The notes below the pieces were generated by a model. That model was not told where the DNA came from. It ran no database searches and saw only the letters and a program-made list of their open reading frames with translations. A stretch of 64,000 nucleotides of DNA, taken from positions 354,889-418,888 of the forward strand of contig JAPPFP010000009.1 of NCBI GenBank assembly GCA_028877275.1, written 5' to 3'. Source of the stretch: Acidobacteriota bacterium. GTDB taxonomy: Bacteria > Acidobacteriota > Thermoanaerobaculia > Multivoradales > Multivoraceae. Position numbers and translations under genes: made by a program. Below, piece after piece: positions 8,946-51,397 of this stretch (the first letter of the stretch is position 1; each line of letters starts with the position of its first letter).

Positions 8946-8951
8946 GTGTGA

Positions 8952-8973
8952 CCGTGGGTCTTCTGACCCACGG
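8952..8973. terminator. Candidate bidirectional terminator hairpin between convergent genes
   Basis: Perfect 9-bp inverted repeat CCGTGGGTC ttct GACCCACGG, 7 nt after the SDR stop and about 30 nt from the convergent sulfatase-like stop. No U-tract, which is common in high-GC taxa. Confidence 0.35.
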
Positions 8974-9002
8974 AAGACGACGCGCCGCGTAGCGGCGACG
9001 AT

Positions 9003-11273: not shown

Positions 11274-11275
11274 CG

Positions 11276-12043: not shown

Positions 12044-12091
12044 GGCGCGAGATTACAACCGCGGCCGGGGCCGGGGTAGATTCCGCGGACG

Positions 12092-12775
12092 ATGAGCGCC
12101 GGAGAACCACGACTGATCCAGATCCAGGCCGGACCGATGGCGAATTTCGTCTACGTTCTGGCCGATCCGTCGACCCGTCACGCCTGGGTCGTCGATCCGG
12201 CCTGGGAGCCGCTCGGCGTCGTCAGGATCGCCGGGGAGCAGGGCTACGAGGTGGTCGGTGTGCTGGCGACCCACTTTCACCAGGATCACATCGGCGGCGA
12301 CATCTTTGGGCAGCACGTGCCGGGAGTGCGGGAGCTGCGCGCCGAGTTCGACCTGCCGATGCTGATTCATGAGGCCGAAGCGGAGCGCGGCGCCGAGATC
12401 GCCGGTTGCCCGCCCCACCGCGTGGAGTCGTTCCGGGACGGCGACGTCCTTGAACTGGGCGAGCTGGCGGTCGAGGTGCTGCACACCCCGGGCCACTCGC
12501 CGGGCAGTTGCTGTTTCCGCGCCGGCAGCCACGTACTCACCGCGGACACGCTGTTCGTGCAGGGCATCGGCCGGATCGACCTGCCGCACAGCGATGTCGA
12601 CGCGATGTACCGCTCGCTGCAGCGGCTGAAGACCCTGCCGCCGGAACTCACGATCTACCCGGGCCACGACTACGGCCCCGAGTCCAGCTCGACGATCGGT
12701 CGCGAACTCATGTGGAACGCCTACCTCCGACCGGACAGCCTCGAGCAGTGGCGGGCGATGCTGGGCTTCCTTTGA
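12092..12775 (+). CDS. MBL-fold metallo-hydrolase (glyoxalase-II-like)
   Basis: HFHQDHIGG metal-binding motif, TPGHSPGS, and distal H/D ligands. Confidence 0.8.
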   Translation: MSAGEPRLIQIQAGPMANFVYVLADPSTRHAWVVDPAWEPLGVVRIAGEQGYEVVGVLATHFHQDHIGGDIFGQHVPGVRELRAEFDLPMLIHEAEAERGAEIAGCPPHRVESFRDGDVLELGELAVEVLHTPGHSPGSCCFRAGSHVLTADTLFVQGIGRIDLPHSDVDAMYRSLQRLKTLPPELTIYPGHDYGPESSSTIGRELMWNAYLRPDSLEQWRAMLGFL

Positions 12776-13500
12776 GTCCCGAAGAGGCGGCCGGGTCGGC
12801 GGCACCCGTGTCGCAGGGGGCTCCGGCCCGCCTCGAGACGCGCGGACTGCGTCGCGAACTGCGTTCAGGAGAACGCACCCTCGTCGTGGTCGACGACGTC
12901 GATCTCGAAGTGGCCGCAGGTGAGTGCGTTTCCGTCCGGGGCCCCTCCGGGGCCGGCAAGTCGACGCTCCTTGCCCTGCTTGCCGGACTCGACCGGCCGA
13001 CCGCCGGGAGCGTCCTGATCGACGGCCAGCCGATCGAGCATCTGAGCGAGGACGAACTGGCCCTGCTGCGGCGGGAGAAGATCGGCTTCGTCTTCCAGGC
13101 GTTTCAGTTGCTCCCAAACCTGACCGCTCGCGAGAACGTCCAGTTTCCGCTCGACCTCCTGGGGCGCAGGCGTTCCGGCCGGCGGGCGGAGGAGCTCCTG
13201 GCGGAGGTCGGTCTGGCGGAACGCGTCCACCACTATCCGTCGCAACTCTCGGGCGGGGAGCAGCAGCGCGTGGCTCTGGCCAGGGCGTTCGCGGCGGAGC
13301 CCCGGATCCTCCTGGGGGACGAGCCCACAGGGAACCTGGACTCGGTGACCGGCGCGGCGGTTCTCGATGTGATGATGGCGTTGCGGGATCGATTCGGATC
13401 GACCCTGGTGCTGGTGACCCATGACCCGGCTGTGGCCGCGCGCGCCGACCGAGAGCTGGTCATGGTGGACGGCCGCATTGCGGAAGCAAGCGCGCGGTGA
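12772..13500 (+). CDS. ABC transporter ATP-binding protein (LolD/MacB/YbbA-like)
   Basis: Walker A GPSGAGKST, signature LSGGEQQRV, Walker B LLGDEPTGNLD. In-frame TTG at 12772 overlaps the MBL stop; GTG at 12808 is an alternative start. The upstream part of the ORF-track ORF is rejected. Confidence 0.8.
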   Translation: MSPEEAAGSAAPVSQGAPARLETRGLRRELRSGERTLVVVDDVDLEVAAGECVSVRGPSGAGKSTLLALLAGLDRPTAGSVLIDGQPIEHLSEDELALLRREKIGFVFQAFQLLPNLTARENVQFPLDLLGRRRSGRRAEELLAEVGLAERVHHYPSQLSGGEQQRVALARAFAAEPRILLGDEPTGNLDSVTGAAVLDVMMALRDRFGSTLVLVTHDPAVAARADRELVMVDGRIAEASAR

Positions 13501-27190: not shown

Positions 27191-27955
27191 ATGTGGTTGC
27201 GCTTGCGGCAGATCTGTCTGGTAGCCGAGAAACTCGCCCCGGTCGTCGACGACCTGGAGGCTGTCTTCGACATCGAGGTCTGCTTCAACGATCCCGGCAT
27301 CGTTCGGTTCGGGCTCGAGAACGCTCTGCTGCCGATCGGTAACCAGTTGCTCGAGGTCGTGGCCCCGATCGAGGAGAACACCGCCGGCGGGCGCTACCTG
27401 GAGAAGCGCGGCGGCGACGGCGGCTACATGTTCATCACCCAGTGCGACGACCATGCCCCGCGCCGGCGCCGGGTCGCCGAACTGGGGATTCGCCTGGTCA
27501 ACGAGTTCGAGCGCCACGGCTTCCAGAACATGCAGCTCCATCCCAAGGACACGGGCGGGACGTTCTTCGAGATCGACTGCCAGACGAACGGCCTGGAGCC
27601 GGGCGGGCCCTGGGAACCGGCGGGAGAGAACTGGCAGCGCTGCAGGCGGACTGACGTCGTCGACGCGATCGTGGCGGGGGAGATTCAGACCCCGGACCCG
27701 GACCGCCTTGCCGCCCGCTGGAGCGAGATCGCCGAGATTCCGCTGCACGATGTCGACGGCGTGCCGACGATCCCGTTCGAGAATGCTGACCTGCGGTTCG
27801 TTCTGCCGACCGACGGCCGGCCCGAAGGCCTGGGTGGCATCGATCTGCGCGCGGTCGACGCGGACCGCGCCCGTTCAGCCGCGGGCGAGCGGGGCTGCCT
27901 CGGCGCCGACGGCGTGATCCACATCTGCGGTACCCGCATCCGGCTCGTCGACTGA
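27191..27955 (+). CDS. VOC/glyoxalase-like domain protein
   Basis: Glyoxalase-like fold signals. The 3' end overlaps the convergent sqdB by about 80 nt. Confidence 0.6.
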   Translation: MWLRLRQICLVAEKLAPVVDDLEAVFDIEVCFNDPGIVRFGLENALLPIGNQLLEVVAPIEENTAGGRYLEKRGGDGGYMFITQCDDHAPRRRRVAELGIRLVNEFERHGFQNMQLHPKDTGGTFFEIDCQTNGLEPGGPWEPAGENWQRCRRTDVVDAIVAGEIQTPDPDRLAARWSEIAEIPLHDVDGVPTIPFENADLRFVLPTDGRPEGLGGIDLRAVDADRARSAAGERGCLGADGVIHICGTRIRLVD

Positions 27956-29215
27956 CGGCTTCGCGGCGGCGGGCTCGTCCGGTCCCGCACCGTTGCCGCC
28001 TTCCAGACGGGTCGTTCCATCCAGGAAACCGGACCTCCGCCGGCTGCCGTCCCAACGGATGTCGGGCAGCAGTACGTCCCGCTTCGACGCGATCCGGTCG
28101 TGGTGCGGCAGGAGGTCCTCGAGCATCGCCCGGAGCTCCGAGTCCATGTCGCGGGTCGGCTGGTAACCCAGGGCCAGCAGGTGGTCGTGGTCCGGGTTGT
28201 AGTGGTGCTCTTCCATTTCCTTGCGGGGATTCTCGATGCGCCGGATTCGCGGATCGAGGCCCATTTCGGAAGCGACGGCAGCGACCTTGGCGGCGAGCTC
28301 CGAGATGGTGTACGTCTCCTCGAACTGATTGAAGACGCGGTAGTCGCCTGCCTCGGGCGGGTTGTCGACCGCCAGAGTCAGGCACTGCATCGAGTCGCAG
28401 ATCGGCAGGAAGCCGCGGCGCTGGTTGCCGAGCCCGAAGAGGGTCAGCGGTTCCCCGATCACGGACTGGCAGCAGAAGCGGTTGAGGGCCGTGCCGAAAG
28501 CCTGGTCGAAGTCGAGCCGGGTGTGGAGCGCGGGATCGGCGGGGTGGTCGGCGGCGCTGCCGAAGAAGCGGGTGCCGTAGACGACGCCCTGCATCACGTC
28601 GGTGGCCCGCAGCCCGAAGATGCGGCACGCGAACATCACGTTGTTGCTGTCGTGGACCTTGCTCCAGTGGTACCAGGAGCCGGCTTGCCGCGGGAAGGGC
28701 AAGCGGTCGCGACGACCGCGGTACTCGACTTCGAAGAAGCCCTCGGGGATGTCGAGGTTCGGCGTGCCGTACTCGCCCATCGTGCCGAGCTTGACCAGGT
28801 GCGCCGCGGGGGCCAGATCGCGCATCGCGTAGAGCACGTTCATCGTGCCCTCGATGTTGTTGCGCTGCACCCAGATGGCGTGGTCCGCGTCCATCATGGA
28901 GTAGGGCGCCGAGGGGCATTCGCCCAGGTGGACAATCGCCTCCGGTCGGACGTCCTCGAACAGCCGGTACACCACGGCCTTGTCGGTCACGTCGCCCTGC
29001 ACCAGGTGCGGACGCCGGCCGTGGGCGGACTCGAAAGCGTCGAGGCGGGCCTCGACGGAGGCGACCGGCAAGGCGGAATGGCCGCCCATTTCGGCGACCC
29101 ACTCGCGGCGGAAGCCGGCATCGATGCCGGAAACCTCGTGGCCGCGGGCAGTCAGGTACTGCGCCAACGGCCAGCCGAGATAGCCGTCGATGCCTGCTAT
29201 GAGAACGCGCGTGAT
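27875..29215 (-). CDS. sqdB: UDP-sulfoquinovose synthase (SQD1/SqdB family). Proposed non-canonical ATC start at 29215; the ORF-track TTG start is 29167.
   Basis: Collinear similarity (recalled) to SQD1: GECPSAPYSM, QRNNIEGTMNVL, HLVKLGTMGEYGTPNLDIPEGFFEV, WYHWSKVHDSNN (catalytic Y-x-x-x-K), RLDFDQAFGTALNRFCCQ, YRVFNQF. The Rossmann loop IAGIDGYLGW is in frame upstream of TTG 29167, only 7 codons after a TGA. Confidence 0.8.
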   Translation of the reverse strand: MTRVLIAGIDGYLGWPLAQYLTARGHEVSGIDAGFRREWVAEMGGHSALPVASVEARLDAFESAHGRRPHLVQGDVTDKAVVYRLFEDVRPEAIVHLGECPSAPYSMMDADHAIWVQRNNIEGTMNVLYAMRDLAPAAHLVKLGTMGEYGTPNLDIPEGFFEVEYRGRRDRLPFPRQAGSWYHWSKVHDSNNVMFACRIFGLRATDVMQGVVYGTRFFGSAADHPADPALHTRLDFDQAFGTALNRFCCQSVIGEPLTLFGLGNQRRGFLPICDSMQCLTLAVDNPPEAGDYRVFNQFEETYTISELAAKVAAVASEMGLDPRIRRIENPRKEMEEHHYNPDHDHLLALGYQPTRDMDSELRAMLEDLLPHHDRIASKRDVLLPDIRWDGSRRRSGFLDGTTRLEGGNGAGPDEPAAAKPSVDEPDAGTADVDHAVGAEAAPLARG

Positions 29216-29340
29216 GTCACCCCCGAATCAAGCAAGTCGATTGTAGGGGCTTGCACGGCGGAACGCTACGGGTAAGGTCCCGTGGTGCTACCTTCCGCCC
29301 TCGTGCTCTGGTCGGGAACAAGACCGCCCCCCACCCCGTC

Positions 29341-30405
29341 ATGAGGATTCTCTACGGAGTGCAGGGCACGGGCCACGGTCACCTGGTGCGGTCGGCGGCG
29401 ATGGTGGCGGGCTTGCGAAGTCGGGGCCACGATGTGCACTGCCTGTTGACCGGCCGGTCTTCGGCGGCGTTCGCTGACCCTGAGATCCGGGCCAGCCACA
29501 CCCTGCTCGAGGGCTTCACCGGCCAGGCGGCCGGTGGGCGAGTGCGGTTGCTCCAGACCATTCGGCAGTTGCGGGTGGTTCGCTTTCTGCGCGACGTGCG
29601 CAGCTTCGACGCGTCCGGTTTCGACCTCGTGCTGACCGACTACGAACCGGTGTCCGCGTGGATCGCTCGTCGCTGCCGCCGGCGCAGCATCGGCGTCGGC
29701 CATCTGTACGCGTTCCACCGGCGGCTGAGACTGCCGGGCCGGACCGGGCCGGCCCGCTGGATGCTGCGCCTGTTCGCCCCGCTCTATACCCCTGTACGCA
29801 CCGCGGTCGGCCTTCACTGGCATCGATTCGGCGGCACGAATCTGCCACCGACGATCAGCCCCGACCTCGTCGCGGCGGCCGCCGGCGGTTCTGCCCGTAG
29901 CGATGGCCGGCGGTTCCTCGTCTACCTGCCCGCGGAGAGCGAACAGAGCATCGTGGAGCTTCTGGGGCGACTGCCGGGTCAGCGGTTTGTCGCCTACCGG
30001 CCGGTGCCCGAGCCGCTGGAGCGCGGCAACGTCTCGATTCGCCCCTACGATCGCGAGGCTTTCGTGGCCGATCTGGTCGACTGCGCGGGAGTCATCACGA
30101 ATGCGGGTTTCTCGCTCGTCAGTGAGGCGCTCCATCTGGGTCGCCGTCTCCTGGTGCAGCCCATTCGCCGCCATCCGGAGCAGTTCCTCAACGGCCGGGC
30201 TCTCACGGCCCTGGGTCTTGGCACCGTCGTCGAGCGGCTGACGGTGGAGGGGATCGAGTCCTGGATCGATACTCCGGAGCCGGCTCCCATGAACTATCCG
30301 GACGTAACGCGCCACCTGGTCGGCTGGATCGACGGTGGCGCCGAGCGTCCGCTCGGCGACCTGGCGTCCGATGCGTGGGACGAAGTGTCCTGGCGGCCGG
30401 CATGA
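29341..30405 (+). CDS. MurG/MGD-type (GT28-like) glycosyltransferase
   Basis: N-terminus MRILYGVQGTGHGHLVRS (G-rich GT-B N-domain like MurG/MGD). C-domain GVITNAGFSLVSEALHLGRRLLVQP. Divergent from sqdB with a 125-bp gap. Confidence 0.7.
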   Translation: MRILYGVQGTGHGHLVRSAAMVAGLRSRGHDVHCLLTGRSSAAFADPEIRASHTLLEGFTGQAAGGRVRLLQTIRQLRVVRFLRDVRSFDASGFDLVLTDYEPVSAWIARRCRRRSIGVGHLYAFHRRLRLPGRTGPARWMLRLFAPLYTPVRTAVGLHWHRFGGTNLPPTISPDLVAAAAGGSARSDGRRFLVYLPAESEQSIVELLGRLPGQRFVAYRPVPEPLERGNVSIRPYDREAFVADLVDCAGVITNAGFSLVSEALHLGRRLLVQPIRRHPEQFLNGRALTALGLGTVVERLTVEGIESWIDTPEPAPMNYPDVTRHLVGWIDGGAERPLGDLASDAWDEVSWRPA

Positions 30406-37835: not shown

Positions 37836-38243
37836 TCAGCTGGCCGCCTCCTTCAGCTCCTTCGCCTTCGCGATCCAGCGTTCCACCATCGGCACCGACG
37901 GCGCGCGGCGGCTCAGCTTCTTCTTCGCGTTGACGGCGCTCACCTTGAGCGCGAGGTTCAGGGGCCGGCGGCGGCTCAGGTCGCGTACGGTGCTGACCCC
38001 CGAGGCGACGAGCAGTTCCGCGAAGTCCCCGCCGACGCCGCGAATGCGCATCAGGTCCGCCCGGTTGACGAACCTCTGGATCTGGCGCTCGGGCAGTCCG
38101 GTGCGTTCCGACAGGAGTCGGCGCTCGCGGCGGTCGCGGCAGGCGGCGAGGAGACCGTCCGTGGTTCGGATTCCGGCCTTCGCCAGCTTGGCGGCAACTG
38201 CGGGACCGACGCCTCCGATCTTCCGGACGCCGTAGGGCATCAA
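37836..38243 (-). CDS. DUF4332-like helix-hairpin-helix protein
   Basis: Two HhH-like G-I-G segments (IGGVGPAVAAKLAKAGI, IRGVGGDFAELLVASGV). Confidence 0.55.
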   Translation of the reverse strand: MMPYGVRKIGGVGPAVAAKLAKAGIRTTDGLLAACRDRRERRLLSERTGLPERQIQRFVNRADLMRIRGVGGDFAELLVASGVSTVRDLSRRRPLNLALKVSAVNAKKKLSRRAPSVPMVERWIAKAKELKEAAS

Positions 38244-39024: not shown

Positions 39025-39618
39025 TCAGCGGGAGTAGAACTCGATGACCAGCGGCACTTCGCACACGATCGGGACTTCGTCCCGAACCGGTGTGCTGCGC
39101 AGGGTCGCCTGATAACCGGTTTCGTCCGTCTCTACGTAGGTAGGGACCGTCACGCCGCGCGGCTCGTTGAAGCAGCGGAGTTTCCGGCTCTTCTCCCGCA
39201 CCTCGACGACATCGCCTTCCTTCACCCCGTAGGACGGGATGTTGACACGCCGCCCGTTGACCAGGATGTGGCCGTGGCCGACGAACTGGCGAGCGGCGAA
39301 CACGCTGGGCGCGAAGGCCCGGTGCACGACCGAGTCGAGACGGGTCTCCAGGAGACCGACCAGATTGTCGCCGGTCACGCCCCTCATCCTCGACGCCCGC
39401 TTGTAGTAGTTGCGGAGCTGGCGCTCGCTGACGTTGTACTGGTAGCGCAGCCGTTGCTTCTCGAGCAACTGCCGCCCGTAGTTGCTCTGGCGTCGCCGTC
39501 GCTTGAGACCGTGCATGCCCGGCGGATGGCCCTTCTTTTCCATGTAGCGCGCGGCCTTGGGCGTCAGTGGTATGCCCAGCTTGCGCGAGAGCTTGACCTT
39601 GGGCCCGTTGAACTTCAC
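39025..39618 (-). CDS. rpsD: 30S ribosomal protein S4 (zinc-ribbon-less form)
   Basis: GTG start with GGAG 9 nt upstream. VKFNGPKVKLSRKLG..., S4-domain blocks QRLRYQYNVSERQLRNYY, LLETRLDSVV, GHILVNGRRVNIPSY. The 657-aa ORF-track ORF is an artefact of the open frame upstream. Confidence 0.9.
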   Translation of the reverse strand: MKFNGPKVKLSRKLGIPLTPKAARYMEKKGHPPGMHGLKRRRRQSNYGRQLLEKQRLRYQYNVSERQLRNYYKRASRMRGVTGDNLVGLLETRLDSVVHRAFAPSVFAARQFVGHGHILVNGRRVNIPSYGVKEGDVVEVREKSRKLRCFNEPRGVTVPTYVETDETGYQATLRSTPVRDEVPIVCEVPLVIEFYSR

Positions 39619-39836: not shown

Positions 39837-40979
39837 TCAGGGATGTGCTTCCGGAGCGGCGGCTTCGTCGAAGAGACTTCGCTGGTCCGTGCGCCGCCGG
39901 AAAGCCGACGCGGAGGGGCTGCCGAGCCGCCTGCTCCGACCGCCGTCGAGCCCGACGCGGCGGCGCACCGTCTCGAACAGCCTGCCGATCTGCTCGGCGT
40001 ACTCCCCGCCGCCCTTCATGCGGTGGTGGAAGCGGGGGTCGTTCAGGTTGCCGTCGCGCGCTTCCCGAAGCCGGTTCAGCACCCGGTCGCGGCGGTCGGG
40101 GAAGTGGGTCGCGAGCCAGTTGGAGAAGAGCTCCCGCAGGCCGTGGGGCAGGCGCACCAAGATGTAGCCCGCCCGGTTCGCTCCGGCTTCGGCTGCGGCT
40201 TCCAGGATGGCGGGGATCTGGTCGTCGTTCAGACCCGGGATGATTGGTGCGGCCATCACGCCGCAGGGGATGCCGGCGGCGCTCAGTTCTCGCAGTGCGT
40301 CTAACCGCCGCCGTGGCGTCGAGGCCCGCGGTTCCATTCGCGCCGAGAGCGAGGCGGAGACCGACGTGATCGAGAGGTAGACGCCGCAGGCCTGGAATCG
40401 GTTGAGTTCCAGGAGCAGGTCGAGGTCGCGGGTCACGAGGTGGTTCTTCGTGATGATCGCCACCGGGTTGCGGAACTCGGCGAGGATCTCCAGGCAGCGC
40501 CGGGTGATCTGGAGCTTCCGTTCGATCGGCTGGTAGGGATCGGTGACGCCGGAGAGGACGATGACCTGGGGTTTCCAGCGCGGGTTCAGGAGCGCCTTTC
40601 GCAGCAGTTCCGGCGCACGCTCCTTGACGAGGATCCGGCTCTCGAAGTCCAGCCCGGCGGAGAAGCCGAGGAACTCGTGGGTGGGACGGGCGTAGCAGTA
40701 GATGCAGCCGTGCTCGCAGCCGCGGTAGGGGTTCAGGCTGTACTCGAAGCCGATGTCTGGTGAGTCGTTTCGGGACAGGATGGTCTTCGAGTGATCCCGG
40801 AACAACTCGGTAGAAGGCGAAACGCCGCGCTCGGCGACGCTCTCTCCCGGTTCGAAGTCGATGTCGATCCTCTCGAAGCGGTTGCGGGGGTTGGCGGCTG
40901 TGCCGCGGCCGCGTACCGAGCCCGCGGGCGCCCCAGGGGGTTTCGAGCGGCGGTCGGGGAGACGGTCGGGAGTCTTCAC
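39837..40979 (-). CDS. Radical SAM protein, PA0069 family (SplB-like)
   Basis: NRFERIDIDFE..., LNPYRGCEHGCIYCYA (C-x3-C-x2-C). Confidence 0.8.
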   Translation of the reverse strand: MKTPDRLPDRRSKPPGAPAGSVRGRGTAANPRNRFERIDIDFEPGESVAERGVSPSTELFRDHSKTILSRNDSPDIGFEYSLNPYRGCEHGCIYCYARPTHEFLGFSAGLDFESRILVKERAPELLRKALLNPRWKPQVIVLSGVTDPYQPIERKLQITRRCLEILAEFRNPVAIITKNHLVTRDLDLLLELNRFQACGVYLSITSVSASLSARMEPRASTPRRRLDALRELSAAGIPCGVMAAPIIPGLNDDQIPAILEAAAEAGANRAGYILVRLPHGLRELFSNWLATHFPDRRDRVLNRLREARDGNLNDPRFHHRMKGGGEYAEQIGRLFETVRRRVGLDGGRSRRLGSPSASAFRRRTDQRSLFDEAAAPEAHP

Positions 40980-41044: not shown

Positions 41045-43294
41045 TCAAGCCAGAATCAGCCTCGGGCTGCCGGAAGACGCGGGCCTCGCGCGGGCGATGA
41101 CCGAGGCTGCCTGGAGGCCGTTGTTCCGGAGGGCGCGGACCAGACTGTCGGCGCCCTCCGGAGAGACCGCCGCCACCAGTCCGCCGGCCGTCTGGGGATC
41201 GAAGGCCAGCTCCAGGCGTGGTCCCGCGGCGGCCAGGCGCTCGACCTCGACCGGCAGCCGGGTGTTCTGATCGTGGCTCGTGCTGCGCTCGCCGCGGCCC
41301 AGCAGTTCGATCGCGCCGGGAAGCGCGGGCAGGGCGTCGACATAGACCTCGAGGTCCACGCCGCTCGCCTGCGCCATCTCGCCCAGGTGACCGGCGAGGC
41401 CGAAACCGCTCACGTCGGTCGCAGCGGTTACGCCGGCTCGTCTGGCCGCTTCCATCGCGCCACGGTTGCTGGTCTGCATCGAGGCGAGGCAGGCCCGCAG
41501 CCAGCGACCGGGACAGAGCCCCATCCTGTCGGCGGCGAGCAGGACGCCGGAGCCCAGTGGCTTGGTCAGGACCAGGGCGTCGCCGGGCCGGACCCGCCTC
41601 TTGAGCAGCAGGTCATGGCCGTCTTCCGACACGCCCTCGACGTGGAAGCCGACGACCAGTTCAGGCCCGGTGTTCGTGTGGCCGCCGAGGAGCCGGACAC
41701 CTTCCGGCTCAAGCGCCGCGCGGGCGCCTGCGAGGACCTGGGCCAGGAGCTCCTCGGCGGTTGCGCCGGCGGCAGCCTGCGGCAGAGTGACCAGAGCCTG
41801 GGCAAACCGGGGCGTCACCCCGGTGGCGTGGAGATCGGAGCAGGCGTTCACGGCAGCTACGCGGCCCACGAGCCAGGGGTCGTCGGTGAAGGCGGGGAAG
41901 GCGTCCAGAGAAGCCACGATGCGATCCCCGGCCGGCGTCCGGTAGGCCACCGCATCGTCCGGCGTCCGAGTGTCCAGAATGATCTGGTCCGGGAGGATCT
42001 GGTCGCCGGTCTCCGGCCGAGCGTGCAGACCCGCGCGCGCCAGGGCCCTGCCCAGCCGGTCGGGTCCTACTTTCGCCGCGCAACCGCCGCAGTACATGGG
42101 GACCGGCTGAGGCACGTCGTTCACCCCGTGCGTTTCGGGACCTGCCGTCATGACGCCGAACGCGGGCAGCGCCGCGCCGTCCGGAGCGAGGGCCTGGAAG
42201 CGTTCCATGAACCGGCGGTCGATCCGGTCCTTGAGCCGCATGACCCAGCGACCTTCGAAGGCGGCGCCCCACTTGGCGCCGGCGGCCCGGCCGTCGCCGA
42301 GATTGAGCAGAGCCAGGAAGTCGCCCTGCGGCCGGTACCGGAGGAGTCGCTGTCCCGACTGCAGGCGCTCCAGGTTCTCGATCAGGTAGGGCCCCATGCG
42401 CACCGCGTAGACGCCTGCCCGAGGGCGATTCGGCTGGTCGGTCAGGGTCGCGCAGTCGCCGACGGCGAAGATGTGGTCGTGGCCCTCCACCTGCAGAGTG
42501 GGCCGGGTGCGTGCGAAGCCACGATCGCAGAGGGGCAGGTCGGAACCCCGGAAGATCGGCAACGCGGCGGCGCCGGTTACCCAGAAGGTCAGGTCCGAGT
42601 CGAGGCTCTTGCCGTCTTCGAGCCGCACGCCGTGCTCCTCGACGGCGACGACGGCCGTATCGACCAGGGTGCGGAGGTCGCGCTCGCGTGCCGCCGCCTC
42701 GATGCGCCGCGCCAGTGCCGGGTGGTAGCCGGGCAGGATGTGGTGGCCGGCCTCGACGATCGTGACCCGGGGTTCCAGGTCCAGACCGCGCAGCCGGGCG
42801 TCGATGCAGAACGCGAGTTCGATGCCGCCCGCGCCGCTGCCGACGACGACCACGTTCGGCTGCCGGCTGGTCAGGCCCTCGAGACGGCCGGAGATCGCGG
42901 CCGCCAGCCGGTTGATCGGCCGCGTGGGAACCGCGTGCTCGCGCACGCCGGGCAGCTCGAGCCCGGCCACTGTCGACCCAACGTCGAAAGAGGCGACGTC
43001 GAACGGGAGTGGCTCCCGGCCCTCGACCAGAACGCGCCGGTCCGCCGCTTCGACGCCGGTGCAGGGCGCGAGCACCACGCGGACTCCCGCCCGGCGCGCA
43101 AGCGGCACCGCGTCGATCTCCAGTTCATGCCGTTCGTACTGTCCGGCGACGAGTCCGGGCGCCATGCCGGAGTAGACGGCGATGGGCGTGTCGACGACGA
43201 GGGTCGCCTCGATCGCCGGATCCGGGTGCATCATCCAGTGGCGCAGGACCTGGATGTGGGTGTGCCCGGCGCCGACCAGGACAACCTGCGGCAT
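41045..43294 (-). CDS. selD: Fusion protein: FAD/NAD(P)-binding pyridine-nucleotide-disulfide oxidoreductase domain plus selenide, water dikinase (SelD)
   Basis: N-terminus VVLVGAGHTHIQ (FAD Rossmann) and a second GxGxxG (VVVVGSGAGGIE). The C-terminal roughly 350 aa is SelD-like: MYCGGCAAKVGP (Cys-containing glycine-rich N-terminal loop) and TDVSGFGLAGHLGEMA (AIR-synthase-like). Start is coupled to the CaiB stop (TGATG). Confidence 0.8.
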   Translation of the reverse strand: MPQVVLVGAGHTHIQVLRHWMMHPDPAIEATLVVDTPIAVYSGMAPGLVAGQYERHELEIDAVPLARRAGVRVVLAPCTGVEAADRRVLVEGREPLPFDVASFDVGSTVAGLELPGVREHAVPTRPINRLAAAISGRLEGLTSRQPNVVVVGSGAGGIELAFCIDARLRGLDLEPRVTIVEAGHHILPGYHPALARRIEAAARERDLRTLVDTAVVAVEEHGVRLEDGKSLDSDLTFWVTGAAALPIFRGSDLPLCDRGFARTRPTLQVEGHDHIFAVGDCATLTDQPNRPRAGVYAVRMGPYLIENLERLQSGQRLLRYRPQGDFLALLNLGDGRAAGAKWGAAFEGRWVMRLKDRIDRRFMERFQALAPDGAALPAFGVMTAGPETHGVNDVPQPVPMYCGGCAAKVGPDRLGRALARAGLHARPETGDQILPDQIILDTRTPDDAVAYRTPAGDRIVASLDAFPAFTDDPWLVGRVAAVNACSDLHATGVTPRFAQALVTLPQAAAGATAEELLAQVLAGARAALEPEGVRLLGGHTNTGPELVVGFHVEGVSEDGHDLLLKRRVRPGDALVLTKPLGSGVLLAADRMGLCPGRWLRACLASMQTSNRGAMEAARRAGVTAATDVSGFGLAGHLGEMAQASGVDLEVYVDALPALPGAIELLGRGERSTSHDQNTRLPVEVERLAAAGPRLELAFDPQTAGGLVAAVSPEGADSLVRALRNNGLQAASVIARARPASSGSPRLILA

Positions 43295-44514
43295 CAGTTC
43301 GTGTCTGCTGTGTCCGCGGCCCGCACCGCGCCGGACGCTTCGAGACCGGCGATTCGCTCCGAGCCGTAGCCCAACTCCGCGAGCACTTCGCCCGTGTGCT
43401 CGCCTAGACGCGGGGCGGGCCTTCGGATGGCTCCCGGTGTCTGAGAGAAACGCCAGGGCACGCCGGCCATGCGCAGGTTGCCGAGTTGCGGGTGACGGAC
43501 GACCTGGCTCATCGCCATCGCCTCGACCTGCGGGTCGTCGAAGAACTCCTCGGCCGAGCGGACGGCGGCGCAGGGAACGCCGACCGCGACCAGCTCCGCC
43601 TCCAGTTCCCGTGCCGGTCTTCCTGCCACGATCGGGTCGATCTCGGCGCTCAGCGCGGCGGCGTTGCTGACCCGCTGGGGGTTCGTCTCGTAGCGCGGGT
43701 CATTGGCCAGGTCGTCGCGACCGATCGCTTCGCAGAACAGCTTCCAGAACTTGTCCGTGCCGGCGGCGATGAAGATCGGCCCGTCGGCGGCGGCGAACAT
43801 CCGGTAGGGGAAGATGCCGGGAGGCCCGGTGATCTCGGCCTCGAGGGGCTGGAGGTAGGACTGCGCCTGGGCCGTCATGATCGCCTGCAGCAGAGAGGTC
43901 TCGATGTGCTGGCCAACGCCGGTGCGCTCGCGGTGGAGGAGGGCGGCGTTGATCGAGCAGACCGTCAGCACGGCGGCCATGTAGTCGGAGACCGCCACCG
44001 GGCAGATGGCGGCGACGCCGTTCATCAGTTGCTGCAGGTGGGCGGCGCCGGCCATCGACTGCAGCACCGGGTCGTAGCCGGGCCGCTGCGCGTACGGTCC
44101 GCTGCCGCCGAAGGCGCTCGAGGAGGCGTAGATGAGTCCGGGGTTGTGGCGGCTCAGGGTGTCGTAGTCGATGCCGAGTCTGGCGGCGACGCCCGGACGG
44201 AAGTTCTCCATCGCGACGTCGGCATCCCCGGCCAGGTCGTAGATCACCTGCCGGCCCTCCGTCGTCTTCAGGTTGACAGAGATGCCGCGCTTGTTTCGGT
44301 TCCAGGCCTGGAACATCCGGCTTTCGCCCTCGATGAAGGGTCCCCAGTGGCGGGCGTTGTCGCCGCCGGGCGATTCGATCTTCAGGACATCGGCGCCCAT
44401 GTCGCCGAGCAGCATGGCGCCGTAGGAGCCGGCGATGAAGCTCGTGAAGTCGAGGACCCGGATGCCGTCGAGCGGGCCGCCCGAACCGGCCTCGGGCGAA
44501 GGCGTCTCAGACAT
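43294..44514 (-). CDS. CaiB/BaiF family (class III) CoA-transferase
   Basis: GIRVLDFTSFIAGSYGAMLLGDMGADVLKIE N-terminal signature and a catalytic Asp region. Confidence 0.85.
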   Translation of the reverse strand: MSETPSPEAGSGGPLDGIRVLDFTSFIAGSYGAMLLGDMGADVLKIESPGGDNARHWGPFIEGESRMFQAWNRNKRGISVNLKTTEGRQVIYDLAGDADVAMENFRPGVAARLGIDYDTLSRHNPGLIYASSSAFGGSGPYAQRPGYDPVLQSMAGAAHLQQLMNGVAAICPVAVSDYMAAVLTVCSINAALLHRERTGVGQHIETSLLQAIMTAQAQSYLQPLEAEITGPPGIFPYRMFAAADGPIFIAAGTDKFWKLFCEAIGRDDLANDPRYETNPQRVSNAAALSAEIDPIVAGRPARELEAELVAVGVPCAAVRSAEEFFDDPQVEAMAMSQVVRHPQLGNLRMAGVPWRFSQTPGAIRRPAPRLGEHTGEVLAELGYGSERIAGLEASGAVRAADTADTN

Positions 44515-44548: not shown

Positions 44549-46348
44549 CTACTCCACGAGCTCGACGTTGTCGATCTCGAGCCGGAACGGGCCGTGATCG
44601 GTAGGGCCGCCGATGAAGAACGCCCAGGCGCCCGAGGGATCGAGACCGTTGAACGAGGACAGCGGGATCTCGATCCGGCCCCAGGCCTCTCCGGCCTCGA
44701 AGGAGACGGCGGCCGGTTGCATTCCCAGGCTCTCGGCGAACACCATCGCCTGGTAGGCCGCGCCCTCGCCGCGGGCGTCGAAGGCCAGAGCGCGGAGACC
44801 GCTGGCGTCGACCGGGTCGTTGAACCGGGAGCCGAGCAGGACCATCACACCTGACCACGGAAAGGCGAAGCCCTCCTTGATCTCGCCTTCGATCCGCAGG
44901 GCGTTGCCGCCCCCGTCGCCGGGCGCTGCGCCGGTTGTCACCGTCGACTTGCCGCCGGCGAAGGCGTCGGTCGAGTGCGACCACTTGGGGGGCAGTGCGC
45001 CGGCGGCCAGGTTCTCGAAATCGCTGAGCAGGGTGGGTTCAAGGCGGGGCCGGCCGCTAGCGGGTGCGGTGATCCGTCGCTCGAAGCGGATCCCGTCCTT
45101 CCAGATCGCCGCGACGTCGCGGGTGGCGCGCACGTCGGCGGTCGCGTCGTCGCGAACCAGGAGCAGGTCGGCCTTGAGGCCGGCCGCTACCCGGCCGCGG
45201 TCCTCCAGGCCGAATGCGTCGACGGGCGCGGTGGTGGCCGCTCGCAGGGCCTCGACCGGCGTCAGACCGGCGCGGACCAGCAGTTCGAGTTCCCGGTGGA
45301 CGCTCGCGCCATGAGTCGTTCCAGGATTCGGCGCGTCCGAACCGGCCAGAATCGGCACTCCGGCGGCGTGCAGCGCGCCTACATCGGCCAGGATGTTCGC
45401 CATCAACTCGGGGTCCGGTTCCCGGCCGAAGTTCTGACCCAGACCGCCTCGCTGTTCGGGCGTCAGAAAGGGGGCGATGAGCGGATCCGCGGCCAGCTCC
45501 GGACCGCCGCCGGTGGCCGCGATCGTTTCGAGCACGGCGAGCGTGGGGACGACGAAGATCCCCGCCTCGCGGGCCGCTTCGACAATCTCTCCGCTTCCGG
45601 CGCGGTCGAAGTGCATGTGGACCAGGCCGTCGGCGCCCGCGGCGATGACCTCCCCAGCCGCTTCCTCCGTGCTGATGTGGAAGACAGCCAGCAGATCGTT
45701 ACTGTGCGCGGCGGCCACGATCCGGGGCAGGGTCGAGACCGCGAACGTGGGAAGCGGGCGTCCGGCGGTTCCGGCTTCGTAGATCACCTTGATGAAGTCG
45801 GCGCCCGCGGCCGCCCGGTCGCCGATGAAGGCCTCGGTCTGCTCCGGGTCGTCCAGAGTGGGCAACGCGACGCCGAACTGCGTGCCGTGCCCGCCCGTGA
45901 CGGTTACGGGACCGCCGGCGAAGACGTCGGCCCGGCCCGGAACCGCTCCCGCTGCCTGCTGCCGCCGCCACTGTGCCGCCATGGCCTCGGCGGTGAGCAT
46001 GTCCAGAACGGTCGTGACGCCGAAGTTCAGCGCCTGTTCGAGCGCCGGTCCGAAGTTGTGGGTGTGGCTGTCGATCAGCCCTGGCAGCAGGGTCATGTCG
46101 GCGCCGTCGACGACCTCCGCTTCGGCGCCGGCGGTCGCTGGAATGTCGGCGCCTGTCGTCACCGACTCGATCGTCCGGCCGCGGATCACGACGGTGCCTG
46201 TCGGGAGTACCTCGTCGCCCGTGAAGACGCGCGCGCCCTGGATCACCGTGGCCTGCGCGAGGGCGACGCTGGAGAGACCGGTCAGACCGCATACCGCGAC
46301 GGCGGCGATGCGGAGAAGGCGGAACGACGTGCGGCGACAGACCCCCAT
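44549..46348 (-). CDS. Secreted amidohydrolase-family protein with a C-terminal roughly 150-aa beta-rich extra domain (CIA30/CBM-like)
   Basis: Signal peptide. DSHTHN metal-binding start of the amidohydrolase TIM barrel and a later HAAGVPILAGSDAPN block. The C-terminal domain is outside the barrel. Confidence 0.75.
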   Translation of the reverse strand: MGVCRRTSFRLLRIAAVAVCGLTGLSSVALAQATVIQGARVFTGDEVLPTGTVVIRGRTIESVTTGADIPATAGAEAEVVDGADMTLLPGLIDSHTHNFGPALEQALNFGVTTVLDMLTAEAMAAQWRRQQAAGAVPGRADVFAGGPVTVTGGHGTQFGVALPTLDDPEQTEAFIGDRAAAGADFIKVIYEAGTAGRPLPTFAVSTLPRIVAAAHSNDLLAVFHISTEEAAGEVIAAGADGLVHMHFDRAGSGEIVEAAREAGIFVVPTLAVLETIAATGGGPELAADPLIAPFLTPEQRGGLGQNFGREPDPELMANILADVGALHAAGVPILAGSDAPNPGTTHGASVHRELELLVRAGLTPVEALRAATTAPVDAFGLEDRGRVAAGLKADLLLVRDDATADVRATRDVAAIWKDGIRFERRITAPASGRPRLEPTLLSDFENLAAGALPPKWSHSTDAFAGGKSTVTTGAAPGDGGGNALRIEGEIKEGFAFPWSGVMVLLGSRFNDPVDASGLRALAFDARGEGAAYQAMVFAESLGMQPAAVSFEAGEAWGRIEIPLSSFNGLDPSGAWAFFIGGPTDHGPFRLEIDNVELVE

Positions 46349-47199: not shown

Positions 47200-47564
47200 T
47201 CGGCTGTCTCCTCTTGGACTTGGGGCGTGGGTGGGGCCTGGTCGGTTGCCTCGTCGGTGGCGGAGCCGTCGGCGAGGCGATCGAGGTAGGTAGTGACGGC
47301 ATCGAAGGATCCGTCGATCGTGTTCTTGAACTGGCGCTGGCCTTCCTGTGCGGCGCCCCGCCAGGTCTGGATCAGATCACGTGCCTCCTCGGGGAGGTTC
47401 GGGACCTGGTTCATCATCCGGTCGGCGAGTTCGAGCTGACGGTCCTGGAGGGCGACGATCGCGTCGTAGCCGTTCTCGAAAGCGGCCCTCTGGAACTCGA
47501 GGACCTGCCTCTGGAAGGCAAGCACCTGTCTTGGGATGTTGCTCGGAATGTTGGCTCGGGTCAT
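47196..47564 (-). CDS. Phasin-like (granule/lipid-body-associated) small protein
   Basis: 122 aa, amphipathic helical. LAFQRQVLEFQRAAFENGYDAIVALQDRQLELADRMMNQ is reminiscent of phasin_2-type repeats. ATGA coupling on both sides. Confidence 0.5.
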   Translation of the reverse strand: MTRANIPSNIPRQVLAFQRQVLEFQRAAFENGYDAIVALQDRQLELADRMMNQVPNLPEEARDLIQTWRGAAQEGQRQFKNTIDGSFDAVTTYLDRLADGSATDEATDQAPPTPQVQEETAE

Positions 47565-48949
47565 GGTGTCTCCAGGTTGTGGAACTGCCGCGGTTTGGAC
47601 GGGGCCGGAACACTGCGCCGCCGTCGTCGGGGAGCGCGACCTGCCGCTTCGCGAAGTTCGTCGAACGACTCCGCGAGCAGGTCGGGCAGCACTTCGGCGT
47701 CGGGACAGGCTCGTTCGTCCACCGTGACGCCGACGTGCAGCGCCTGGTTGTAGGCGAAGAACGCGCAGGAGAGGCCCTGGCCGTAACCGATAGGCCAGGA
47801 GGGCGTGTAGCCGGAAAGCGGCCGGCCGGCCAGGAACTGGGGGATCTGGGGACCGTTCGCGTTGGCGACGGTCAGATGGAACGGCGGCCGCAACGAAGAG
47901 GTCATCGCGGTCGCGGCGGCCGCCAGCGGGCCGGCGGCGCCCTGCACGCCGGCGAAGCGCGACAGCACGTCCGCCACCCGCGCCGTCCGCATCAGGCGCG
48001 CGAGCTGGTGCACCGTACGGAGCCGGTCCGCTGCGCCGACGCTCAGGGGAACTTCGATGGGCAGCAGGCTTCGTCGTTTCCGATCGCGTTCGGGGAGGTC
48101 GGTGGCCAGAGCCACGCGCAGACTTCGGCCTCTGGTCGAGACGCCTCTCAGGTCCAGATAGCGTTCGAGTGCGCCGCCGGCCAGGGCGACGACCACATCC
48201 GAGAGCGCGCCGCCCAGCCGGGCCCGGATCAGCCGGATGTCGCGGTAGGAGAAGGCGCACCGAATCAGGCGGCGCCGTCCCCCCAGCTTTCGGTTGAACG
48301 GCATGGGCACCGGCGGCAGTGCGAGATCGGGCATCGTTTCGTTCAGGGTCAGGAGCGCGGTCCGCGTGTCTTCCGAGGTGAGTTCCTGGAGGCCCGCGGC
48401 CAGATGCTGGCCAATCAGTGTCCAGTTCTGGAGCCACTCCGCCCCGCGAGCGCCGCATCGGGCGCCGTTCGACGCCGGTTCGCCGGCCTTCTTCTCCTCG
48501 ACCGTCGTACCGCTCGCAAACAGCGCGTGGAAGAGGTCGCCGGTGCCCAGTCCGTCGACGGCGACCAGGTGGGATTTGACCAGCAGAGCGTCGCCGCCGT
48601 CGTGGTAGCCGGGCGCCAGATGGAACTCCCACAGCGGCCGGCGGGGATCGAGCGGCTTGCCGAGGGCTTCGTCGAACGCGGAAGCAGGGTCGCCGTTCGC
48701 GACGACGTGCAGGTGCTTGTCGAGTTCGAACGGCGCCGGGCGCCAGCGCGGAGGGCCATAGGGCGGTCCGTCGACACGGAGGCTGAACCGCGGCAGCCTG
48801 CGCAGCCGACCCATCCAGTGCAGGAGTTCCTGCCGGTCGATCTCGCCATCGACGAGCGCCAGACCCGCGACGTGCAGTCCGGGGCCGCGGCGCTCGAGGT
48901 TCCACAGGACCGCCTGGTCGGGCGTCAGGAGGGTGTTGGGAGCGGTCAC
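47561..48949 (-). CDS. Wax ester synthase/diacylglycerol acyltransferase (WS/DGAT) paralogue with a variant active-site motif
   Basis: WS/DGAT-like length and blocks. The H-H-x-x-x-D-G motif appears as SHLVAVDG. ATGA-coupled to the upstream hydrolase gene. Confidence 0.75.
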   Translation of the reverse strand: MTAPNTLLTPDQAVLWNLERRGPGLHVAGLALVDGEIDRQELLHWMGRLRRLPRFSLRVDGPPYGPPRWRPAPFELDKHLHVVANGDPASAFDEALGKPLDPRRPLWEFHLAPGYHDGGDALLVKSHLVAVDGLGTGDLFHALFASGTTVEEKKAGEPASNGARCGARGAEWLQNWTLIGQHLAAGLQELTSEDTRTALLTLNETMPDLALPPVPMPFNRKLGGRRRLIRCAFSYRDIRLIRARLGGALSDVVVALAGGALERYLDLRGVSTRGRSLRVALATDLPERDRKRRSLLPIEVPLSVGAADRLRTVHQLARLMRTARVADVLSRFAGVQGAAGPLAAAATAMTSSLRPPFHLTVANANGPQIPQFLAGRPLSGYTPSWPIGYGQGLSCAFFAYNQALHVGVTVDERACPDAEVLPDLLAESFDELREAAGRAPRRRRRSVPAPSKPRQFHNLETP

Positions 48950-49770
48950 GTGGCCGTCTCCGCGGTGAGCGCGGGACTCGGGTGGCGCTTCAGGAACCGT
49001 GCGAGATGCCAGTACGCGAGGGCGTTGGCGGCCAGGCCGGAATGGGTGCCGAGGACCTCCCGATTCAGCGACGGGTCGTGTAGCCGCGTGTAGCGCCAGG
49101 CGACGACGCCGTCCCGCCGGGTGAAGATGGCGAGCTGCGGCACCTCTTCCGGAAACGGGCTCTGCACCGAGCGGACCAGGTCGCAGCGGCAGTCACCCGA
49201 GAAGCAGGCGGGTTCCCGGGCGCCGTCCCGTTCGACGACGCGGCGGCGTACCGCCTCCGCCAGCCGCATCACCATGGGATGGGAGCGGACGCCCCGGATC
49301 GGTGAGCCCATCGTGGTGACGGACGCGACCAGATCGGGACGCAGGCTCGTTACACCGCGCGAGAGCATGCCGCCCAGGCTGTGGCCGACCAGGTGCGCGC
49401 GCCGGCCGGTCTCGTCCGCGGCCTTCTGGAGCGTTCCGATCAGCCGGTTGCCCAGCCGGTCGAGACAGTCGGCGTTCTGCCCGATGGCCGAACGGTAGGG
49501 GCGGTAGCCGATGCGGCCAAGCCAGCGGCGCATCGGCGCCAGGTAGCCGTCGGTTCCGGTGAAGCCGGGAACGACGATCACCGCGGCGCCGTCGCCGCGC
49601 GGCACGCCCATGCCGTGGTAGATGGGCGTGAACGGCAGGAAGGCAAACTCGGCGGCCGCGAACGGCTCGCGCCAAAGCGGCAGCGCCGCCGGCACCGAAT
49701 CCCGCAGGAGACGCGGGTTCGCGCTCCAGATCGGGCTGGCCTGACGCCCCCGCCGGGCCGACGCCGTCAC
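48946..49770 (-). CDS. Alpha/beta-hydrolase lipase/esterase (GHSLGG)
   Basis: VIVVPGFTG..., nucleophile elbow GHSLGG. GTG start overlaps the WS/DGAT stop (TAGTG). The ORF-track 5' extension is rejected. Confidence 0.7.
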   Translation of the reverse strand: MTASARRGRQASPIWSANPRLLRDSVPAALPLWREPFAAAEFAFLPFTPIYHGMGVPRGDGAAVIVVPGFTGTDGYLAPMRRWLGRIGYRPYRSAIGQNADCLDRLGNRLIGTLQKAADETGRRAHLVGHSLGGMLSRGVTSLRPDLVASVTTMGSPIRGVRSHPMVMRLAEAVRRRVVERDGAREPACFSGDCRCDLVRSVQSPFPEEVPQLAIFTRRDGVVAWRYTRLHDPSLNREVLGTHSGLAANALAYWHLARFLKRHPSPALTAETAT

Positions 49771-51284
49771 TAGGCGACTCCTCGCAGGGACGCGTCGGAA
49801 TGGGAGTCGGTCGCGGCGGCCTCTTCGGCCTGCGGCAGATCGACCTGGGGTGACGCTGCCGCGAAGCAGCGCGCGCCGCTCGGCTCCTCGCTCTCCACCC
49901 CGGCCGCCTCCCGGAGTTCGGCGTACGACTCCTCCAGGCACTGGGCGAGGAACCACGCGTCGGGGATGAGCTTGGCGTCCACCGTCACTCCCAGGGTGAT
50001 GCGCTGGTTGTAGCTCAGGATGGCGACGAACAGGCCGATGTTGTTCGAAACGATGCCGAGTGGTAGCCAGTCGACCAGCTTGTGGGGTCCGAAGTACAGC
50101 GGAATCATCGGCCCGGGCACGTTGGTCGAGACGGTGTTGAACAGGGTCTGGGAGAAGGGCATCGTCGCGGCGACGGCAGCCATGAGCGGCGGGACCCGGT
50201 CGCTGAACTGGGTCATCTGGTAAAAGGCCTTCGCCTGCCCGGCCTCCTTCAGCTTGTTCATCGCGTCCCGTTCCCTGCCGAGGCGTTCGACCGGGTCGTC
50301 GACCCCGACGAAGAGCGGAGCGATCATGTTCGAGACGAGATTCCCGAGCTGACCCCGTTCGTCCTGCTGGCGCATGCTGACCGGGCACATGGCGCGCAGC
50401 TCGAGTCCCTTCGGGTCCTGGCCGCGCTCACGCAGGTAGCGACCGATGCCGCCGGCGAGCACGGTGAGCACGACGTCGTTGACGGTGCCGCTCAGGGCGG
50501 ACTTGACGGCGCGCAGTTCGGGGAAGGAGAACTGGGCCCATGCGAACCCCCGCTCCTTGCTGACCGGTCGATTGAAGACGGTGCGCGGCGCAGGAGCGGC
50601 GGAGACCGGCAGGGTCGCGGCGCTGGCCGCCACCATCTCGCGTACGCGGTCCGCCATCTGGCGAGGGCGCGCGGCGTCGAAGGCGGCGTTCGTCCAGGAC
50701 TCGTTCAGTTGTCCGAGGCGATGCTGCATCGCTTCCTGGAGGAGGCTCAGAGAGTCCGGCAGCGGCTTCGGCGCCCAGGGCTCGGCGGGTGCGTCCGGCA
50801 GTTCCTCGGTGGGTGAGAAGTCGCTCAGCACCATCGACAGGTCGACGCCGGAGACGCCGTCGACCATCGCGTGGTGGATCTTCCAGACGACCGCCGTGTG
50901 TCCCGGGATGCCGCGGAGCAGAATCCCCTTCCAGAGCGGCCGGTTGCGGTCGAGCATGCCGCCGTAGGCCTCGGCGGCGGCGCGGGCCAGTACCTGGTGG
51001 TCGCTGTCCTCAGGGATCCAGACCTCCTCGACGTGGTTCTCCAGGTTGAAGGACGGGTCATCGACCCACACCGGGTGGGAGACGAGGAAGGGCGGGAACA
51101 GCACGCGCTGGCGGTAGCGGGGCAGCAGGTGCATGCGGGCGGCAAGCTGTTCGACCATGTACTCGCGCGAGAACTCGCCTTCGTAGACCATGCAGCCGCC
51201 GATGTGCATCGTCTCGTGGGGGCGTTCGACATAGAGGAAGGCGGCGTCGAGCGGGGTCAGGAATCGGTTCAGTTCCGTGGCCAT
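49770..51284 (-). CDS. Wax ester synthase/diacylglycerol acyltransferase (WS/DGAT)
   Basis: Canonical HHAMVDGVSG active-site motif and WS/DGAT N-terminal block LTPLDAAFLYVE. Confidence 0.85.
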   Translation of the reverse strand: MATELNRFLTPLDAAFLYVERPHETMHIGGCMVYEGEFSREYMVEQLAARMHLLPRYRQRVLFPPFLVSHPVWVDDPSFNLENHVEEVWIPEDSDHQVLARAAAEAYGGMLDRNRPLWKGILLRGIPGHTAVVWKIHHAMVDGVSGVDLSMVLSDFSPTEELPDAPAEPWAPKPLPDSLSLLQEAMQHRLGQLNESWTNAAFDAARPRQMADRVREMVAASAATLPVSAAPAPRTVFNRPVSKERGFAWAQFSFPELRAVKSALSGTVNDVVLTVLAGGIGRYLRERGQDPKGLELRAMCPVSMRQQDERGQLGNLVSNMIAPLFVGVDDPVERLGRERDAMNKLKEAGQAKAFYQMTQFSDRVPPLMAAVAATMPFSQTLFNTVSTNVPGPMIPLYFGPHKLVDWLPLGIVSNNIGLFVAILSYNQRITLGVTVDAKLIPDAWFLAQCLEESYAELREAAGVESEEPSGARCFAAASPQVDLPQAEEAAATDSHSDASLRGVA

Positions 51285-51397
51285 TTTGGGGTCTCCAGAA
51301 CGGGCGGATCGCGTATGGGTAGGGGTTTATGCTGCGCTGCTTGCTGCAACGCAGCAGAAGCCTCGCACAGAAACGGGCGATTGGCAAGGGTTGGCCC

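Follow-up and report, generated by a model that had tools for sequence, protein, structure and literature searches.

The locus examined here lies in a stretch of 64,000 nucleotides from an Acidobacteriota bacterium (contig JAPPFP010000009.1, positions 354,889 to 418,888; the whole stretch is called the window below, and coordinates refer to it unless a related locus is named) and encodes a protein in which a flavoprotein of the pyridine nucleotide-disulfide oxidoreductase type is joined to a selenophosphate synthetase (selenide, water dikinase, SelD). The question that it raises is whether such a gene marks a selenium pathway of its own or belongs to something already described. The initial annotation, made from the sequence of the window, had suggested that the redox domain delivers reduced selenium to SelD and had left the selenium trait served by the enzyme open, with a non-canonical one in mind. 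Our analysis shows that the locus belongs, as an ordinary member, to a fusion family that is known, curated and published (Ndh–SelD), and that it is not a new selenium system. The reading that we favor, at a probability of roughly 0.8, is that the gene encodes a genuine Ndh–SelD protein, a selenide, water dikinase to whose N-terminus an NDH-2-like FAD flavoprotein is attached, and that this enzyme feeds canonical consumers of selenophosphate encoded elsewhere in the genome.

The fusion gene and its SelD half

The gene occupies positions 41045 to 43294 of the minus strand, stop codon included, as a single open reading frame (ORF) of 749 aa, and its description as an FAD/NAD(P)H flavoprotein followed by a complete SelD was borne out by Pfam, by two curated models and by alignment to the E. 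coli SelD structure 3u0o. Pfam placed Pyr_redox_2 at residues 3–301, Pyr_redox at 147–223, AIRS at 446–551 and AIRS_C at 569–739. In the NCBIfam search the model TIGR03169, named 'Nterm_to_SelD', was matched over its full length by residues 4–366 (376.3 bits, cutoff 310), and the selD equivalog TIGR00476 was matched by residues 402–714 (252.1 bits, cutoff 125). TIGR04369, named 'fusion_not_SelD', describes a family with the same two-domain layout and aligns over residues 6–721 of the fusion, but the score of 450.7 bits is under its cutoff of 700 and the protein is not a member. Because the true SelD model is passed and TIGR04369 is far under its cutoff, the fusion groups with the true SelD fusions.

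Alignment to 3u0o (E = 6e-40, 31% identity) dispelled the concern that the C-terminal half might lack the catalytic residues of SelD. C405 and K408 correspond to the catalytic Cys17 and to Lys20 of the E. coli enzyme, and D447, D464, N483, D487 and D627 correspond to the metal and ATP ligands D51, D68, N87, D91 and D227, so that the fusion shares with single-domain SelDs seven catalytic or ligand positions. The C-terminal domain also matched 3u0o and the Aquifex aeolicus SelD 2yye in Foldseek with a TMt of 0.87, and it carries the motif TDVSGFGLAGH. The active-site loop C402-G-G-C405-A-A-K408 (42071 to 42091, minus strand), present as the initial annotation had read it, is followed by the remainder of the AIR-synthase-like SelD domain (41048 to 42070, minus strand), which is assigned from the two AIRS domains, the 3u0o match and Foldseek.

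This loop holds the main peculiarity of the SelD half. Unlike E. coli SelD, which has GCGC at the corresponding place, the fusion has CGGC, with a second cysteine, C402, three residues upstream of the catalytic one, which turns the loop into a CxxC motif. In an alignment of 49 sequences reaching down to 51% identity, the loop from C402 to K408 was invariant, and all five Asp/Asn ligands were invariant or at least 90% conserved. CGGCAAK was found in 118 of the 120 homologues listed, and among 78 fused representatives of 50% clusters 74 have CxxCxxK.

Compared with a single-domain SelD, the fusion has an extra 400 residues of flavoprotein and linker. The linker, at about residues 367–401 (42092 to 42196, minus strand), was delimited by pLDDT and by length variation; its length differs among orthologues, whose total length goes from 744 to 813 aa. 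An AF2 model built from the alignment of homologues had a mean pLDDT of 90 and a pTM of 0.90 and was disordered only at residues 384–404 and 429–431. In the first of these segments, which covers linker and CxxC loop, pLDDT fell below 50, and the N-terminal glycine-rich loop of the SelD domain is predicted to be mobile in the fusion, as it is in single-domain SelDs.

An assembly or frameshift artefact, which would have joined two separate genes, was rejected. The identical 749-aa protein was found on five contigs with the same flanking genes; one of the five is a 1.35-Mb ENA scaffold (ERZ23495468), and another comes from a Logan assembly made independently (run SRR10996927). A scan of related loci, taken with one genome per species, gave 38 loci from metagenome-assembled genomes (MAGs) of Acidobacteriota, at 69–96% identity and labelled 'Candidatus Multivorans', Thermoanaerobaculia or Holophagales; the fusion is a single uninterrupted ORF in 36 of them and runs into the edge of the contig in the other two. 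A protein search returned 1,506 homologues at E ≤ 1e-10, and the 120 of them that were listed share one domain architecture (104 with all four Pfam domains, 16 lacking only the nested PF00070). Several homologues already bear the name 'selenide, water dikinase SelD' from NCBI or JGI, and NCBI uses it for orthologues at 88–90% identity. The gene is real and intact, a SelD fused to an NADH-dehydrogenase-like flavoprotein.

Fusions of this kind are covered by curated models, and the literature has known them for almost 20 years. They were described as 'Ndh-SelD' by Zhang and Gladyshev (PLoS Genet 2008), who credited the first detection to the bacterial survey of Zhang et al. 2006 and reported hundreds of them in the Global Ocean Sampling (GOS) marine metagenomes, where they made up about 40% of the Cys-type SelDs; CxxC was present in all Ndh-SelD fusions and in fewer than 5% of single-domain SelDs (PMC2398784). 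In the same year Zhang et al. (BMC Genomics 2008) attributed the supply of the SelD substrate to the NADH oxidoreductase, which in their proposal reduces a selenium compound (PMC2432076). The idea of a built-in supply of reduced selenium in the initial annotation is therefore reasonable, but it is a hypothesis already in print (PMC2432076, PMC2398784). Mariotti et al. (Genome Res 2015) found NADH-dehydrogenase fusions to be by far the commonest SelD fusion, with the partner always N-terminal, and fused SelDs to be always of the Cys type apart from one NifS fusion; the fusions are scattered over bacteria and protists (PMC4561486).

Set against this family, our protein has the common features, namely an N-terminal flavoprotein, scores above both curated cutoffs, a Cys-type SelD with CxxC and an aquatic or marine source, and we found no substantive difference; only the host lineage ('Ca. 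Multivorans'/Thermoanaerobaculia MAGs) and the local neighbors are particular to it. NifS–SelD fusions, which occur in Geobacter sp. FRC-32 and some protists, likewise place a selenium-delivery enzyme at the N-terminus and follow the same channelling logic, but their partner is a pyridoxal phosphate-dependent selenocysteine lyase or desulfurase and not a flavoprotein.

The flavoprotein domain and the proposed reaction

The N-terminal domain, residues 1–366 (42197 to 43294, minus strand), was assigned from Pfam, TIGR03169, PDB sequence matches and Foldseek. Its nearest sequences in the PDB are type II NADH:quinone oxidoreductases (NDH-2), namely NDH-2 of Caldalkalibacillus (4nwz, 2e-17), YjlD of B. 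subtilis and NDH-2 of S. aureus (5na1), followed by FSP1 (AIFM2). By structure, Foldseek against the PDB gave NDH-2-type entries at TMt 0.82–0.90 and sulfide:quinone oxidoreductases (SQR) at about 0.75 with 15–16% identity, and no SQR was returned at E ≤ 1e-3 when the domain was searched against the PDB by sequence. With NDH-2 and FSP1 the domain shares the two-Rossmann fold (TMt 0.8–0.9), a GDCA flavin motif, here at G279–A282, and a second loop of the GxGxxG type; it differs from them in being only about 20–23% identical and in its first loop. We say only that the domain resembles NDH-2 in fold; membership in NDH-2 is not claimed.

The two nucleotide-binding loops had both been read as GxGxxG. 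For the second, the NAD(P)H loop, this holds, as residues 152–157 are GSGAGG with the classical G152, G154 and G157, but the first, the FAD loop at residues 8–13 (43256-43273, minus strand), is GAGHTH, with G8, G10, H11 and H13, and follows the pattern GxGHxH. The latter is a feature of the family as a whole, present in 118 of 148 representatives of 50% clusters of the N-terminal domain.

C281, within GDCA, is the only invariant cysteine of residues 1–366. The 49-sequence alignment showed neither a conserved pair of redox-active cysteines in this domain, of the kind that class I pyridine nucleotide-disulfide oxidoreductases (GR/TrxR/LipDH type) have, nor conserved counterparts of the catalytic cysteines of SQR, and the NCBIfam models of lipoamide dehydrogenase and CoA-disulfide reductase, whose cutoffs exceed 400, were matched with only 24–27 bits. 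Since no cysteine beyond C281 is conserved, the domain is not a strict disulfide reductase and lacks catalytic cysteines of the SQR type, and chemistry of either kind was rejected for it.

In the reaction that we propose, NAD(P)H would reduce the FAD, and the reduced flavin would pass its electrons to oxidized selenium held on the CxxC loop or delivered to it, or would reduce the loop itself. The selenium would probably arrive as a selenotrisulfide or perselenide and would stand in the place of the quinone used by NDH-2; for the fusion, either a selenium species or the CxxC loop is the presumed acceptor. The selenide bound to the enzyme could then be phosphorylated by ATP to selenophosphate, which would go to SelA for selenocysteine (Sec)-tRNA and/or to SelU for 2-selenouridine, both presumably encoded elsewhere in the genome. 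In the predicted structure, a disordered linker of about 35 residues joins the flavoprotein to the mobile SelD loop that carries Cys405, Lys408 and the fusion-specific Cys402.

The possible contribution of the flavoprotein domain and of the extra cysteine of the CxxC motif is a question of the whole Ndh–SelD family and not one raised by this locus in particular. The family is abundant in marine microbes, with its share of about 40% of the Cys-type SelDs in the GOS data, and if it were established that the fusion reduces and phosphorylates selenium on its own, driven by NAD(P)H, this would clarify how selenium enters the metabolism of the ocean.

Selenophosphate consumers and competing explanations

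Several observations weigh against the role just proposed. How electrons would get from FAD to the CxxC loop or to selenium is inferred, since a literature search by the name of the fusion, in which two papers were seen to use that name, gave no biochemical test of what the flavoprotein domain does. The GxGHxH form of the first loop is atypical, and the binding of FAD is assumed from the fold. About one third of the closest 50%-cluster representatives of the N-terminal domain (54/148) have the length of a stand-alone protein; such relatives, at 45–55% identity to the domain in the fusion, are common, and therefore the flavoprotein family is not tied exclusively to selenium. Three stand-alone genes (P0126, P0133 and P0139; loci L048 and L049) were considered as possible evidence of gene fission and rejected as such, since none of the three is adjacent to selD, although their contigs are all short (2–4 kb). 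Lastly, as the initial annotation had stated, no selA, selB, selU (ybbB) or yqeB/yqeC gene was found in the window, and no senA, senB or senC of the selenoneine pathway either, when about 44 of its ORFs were compared with NCBIfam (E ≤ 1e-12 or 1e-15) and when E. coli SelU, SelA and SelB were used in tblastn against the window and 43 loci, 967 kb in total.

The stand-alone relatives of the flavoprotein speak for the least improbable of the alternatives, namely that the two halves act independently, or that the N-terminal domain has a non-reductive role, for example as an NDH-2-like quinone reductase that tethers SelD to the membrane or senses redox state, or is limited to re-reducing the CxxC disulfide. 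These relatives are not linked to selD in the three cases inspected, the fold of NDH-2 is retained in the fusion, and the search by fusion name returned no experimental data. We nevertheless regard this explanation as unlikely. Conservation of the CxxC motif is strict, and its presence co-varies with that of the flavoprotein domain, the motif being rare in single-domain SelDs (PMC2398784); the pTM of 0.90 suggests a defined arrangement of the two domains, and different phyla, as well as eukaryotes, retain the fusion (PMC4561486).

The absence of consumers from the window leads to the second alternative, in which the acidobacterial fusion would supply a pathway of another kind, for example toward a selenometabolite, perhaps with participation of the translationally coupled CoA-transferase and of the radical SAM enzyme, in a genome that lacks SelA, SelB, SelU, YqeBC and SenAB. 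The known consumers were likewise not found in the 22-kb stretches around the 38 related acidobacterial loci. The window contains no tRNA, no Rfam match and no in-frame TGA with coding signal on both sides, so a selenoprotein gene or tRNA-Sec in the window was discarded as direct evidence of the Sec trait. Orphan SelDs, moreover, are documented (PMC2432076).

This argument from absence is weak evidence, and it is all that the suggestion of an open or non-canonical trait draws on. Related MAGs have chromosomes of 4–5 Mb, of which the window would make up only about 1%, and selD is often unlinked to its consumers. There is no positive evidence for a non-canonical selenium trait. Canonical traits were found in nearly all SelD-bearing genomes surveyed, with SelA and/or YbbB in 93% of the species, and Sec machinery in all genomes with an extended or fused SelD, together with selenoproteins in those with a fused one (PMC4561486). 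Among the loci that we inspected, a Beijerinckiaceae MAG (L037) has its fusion at 7394–9616, about 2 kb from a tRNA-Sec at 11528–11622, which is followed by selB at 11733–13604 and selA at 13634–14995, so that the fusion and the Sec machinery form a compact cluster (7394-14995 of that locus).

The neighboring genes were the other part of the case for such a pathway. Four genes on the minus strand occupy 39.0-44.5 kb of the window in the ORF list. Upstream of the fusion stands a family III (CaiB-type) CoA-transferase of 406 aa (43294 to 44514), which matches PF02515 with 408 bits over positions 1–366 of 366 and reaches no substrate-specific NCBIfam equivalog (best 279 against a cutoff of 750). 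Downstream is a PA0069-family radical SAM gene of 380 aa with a GTG start (39837 to 40979), which scores 467 bits against a cutoff of 360 for NF033668 and has the cluster motif CEHGCIYC (CxxxCxxC) in its translation, and then rpsD, for ribosomal protein S4 (39025 to 39618), identified by the Pfam domains Ribosomal_S4 and S4 and by a gene call in L046. The genes and their order are those given by the initial annotation, with the small correction that the gap from the stop of the fusion to the start of the radical SAM gene is 65 and not 66 nt. The junction with the CoA-transferase gene reads AACTGATGCCG, and here the overlap reported earlier was found, the TGA of CaiB and the ATG of the fusion sharing one base (TGATG). 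A scan for terminators and promoters at 38.9–46.7 kb gave nothing beyond the expectation from shuffled sequence.

The arrangement with CaiB is well kept among close relatives. The start of the fusion could be placed in 35 full-length related loci, and in 34 of them CaiB is the gene directly upstream, on the same strand; the TGATG overlap is kept in 18 of these, and in the other clade the CaiB stop precedes the start of the fusion by 59–100 nt. Such adjacency is uninformative on function, because within the acidobacterial family collinearity extends over a block of about 15 kb, with two wax-ester synthases, GNAT, amidohydrolase and CaiB, then the fusion and the radical SAM gene, and after these rpsD and three more genes. 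The block is also broken in places. In one 'Ca. Multivorans' MAG (L011) a Mutator-family transposase (PF00872; 8309-9721, minus strand of that locus) takes the place of CaiB; in five genomes (L011, L019, L025, L026 and L033) a gap of 1.0–1.4 kb lies between the fusion and the radical SAM gene, and in a sixth (L027) the latter is inverted. In the three of these gaps that were inspected (L011, L019 and L026), an opposite-strand gene of about 275–290 aa fills the space, and where it was scanned (L026, 12347-13219, minus strand) it is AurF-like, of a diiron-oxygenase family, with no copy in the window; a selU hidden in the gaps was rejected on the strength of these three.

More distant fusions have entirely different neighbors. 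This was seen at one with 41% identity and at four with 53–54%, of which one is from a MAG of Vicinamibacteria, one from an alphaproteobacterial MAG and two from long contigs. A role of CaiB and the radical SAM protein together with the fusion, as the initial annotation implied, was not supported: the neighbors are kept only within the acidobacterial family, and a functional operon with them was rejected, since the synteny does not extend beyond close relatives and is missing in L037 and L040–L043. The CoA-transferase, the radical SAM protein and rpsD are treated as bystanders in a lineage-specific synteny, outside the system. Taken with the small share of the genome that the window covers, this leaves the orphan pathway improbable, slightly below the independence of the two halves. 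A sharper version of it, in which the sponge-associated 'Ca. Multivorans' lacks every known consumer of selenophosphate and the CoA-transferase-coupled Ndh–SelD feeds an undescribed pathway for a selenium (or sulfur) metabolite, is more doubtful again.

Least probable of all is that the SelD-like domain makes thiophosphate or handles persulfide, as has been proposed for SelD-like paralogues, with the flavoprotein reducing polysulfide or persulfide, for while the look-alike paralogous family TIGR04369 exists and the fusion aligns with it from end to end, and SQR is a second-tier structural match to the N-terminal domain (TMt 0.75), the protein reaches only 450 of the 700 bits set for TIGR04369 and passes the SelD equivalog at twice the cutoff, the equivalents of Cys17 and Lys20 are invariant, SQR is not matched by sequence at E ≤ 1e-3, and its catalytic cysteines have no conserved counterparts in a domain whose sole invariant cysteine is C281.

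Other genes of the window

A few further genes of the window were recorded as observations in their own right. Directly upstream of the CoA-transferase gene lies the gene of an amidohydrolase of 599 aa (44549-46348, minus strand) with a signal-peptide-like N-terminus and a C-terminal CIA30-like domain (PF08547, just under cutoff). The two wax-ester synthase/DGAT paralogues (TIGR02946), at 47561-48949 and 49770-51326 of the minus strand, are about 0.8 kb apart, and both are kept in related loci. On the other side, downstream of rpsD and of a CarboxypepD_reg-like secreted protein, a DUF4332/helix-hairpin-helix protein of 135 aa is encoded at 37836-38243 (minus strand), and this gene is kept in 33 of the 35 related loci that cover its position.

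Farther away, a UDP-sulfoquinovose synthase-like gene (27875-29227, minus strand; NF041015, 523 bits, just under the cutoff of 575) has as its divergent partner a gene for a glycosyltransferase of the MJ1255/VC2487 family (29215-30405, plus strand), and in this acidobacterial MAG the pair may represent a locus for sulfolipid or sulfoquinovose.

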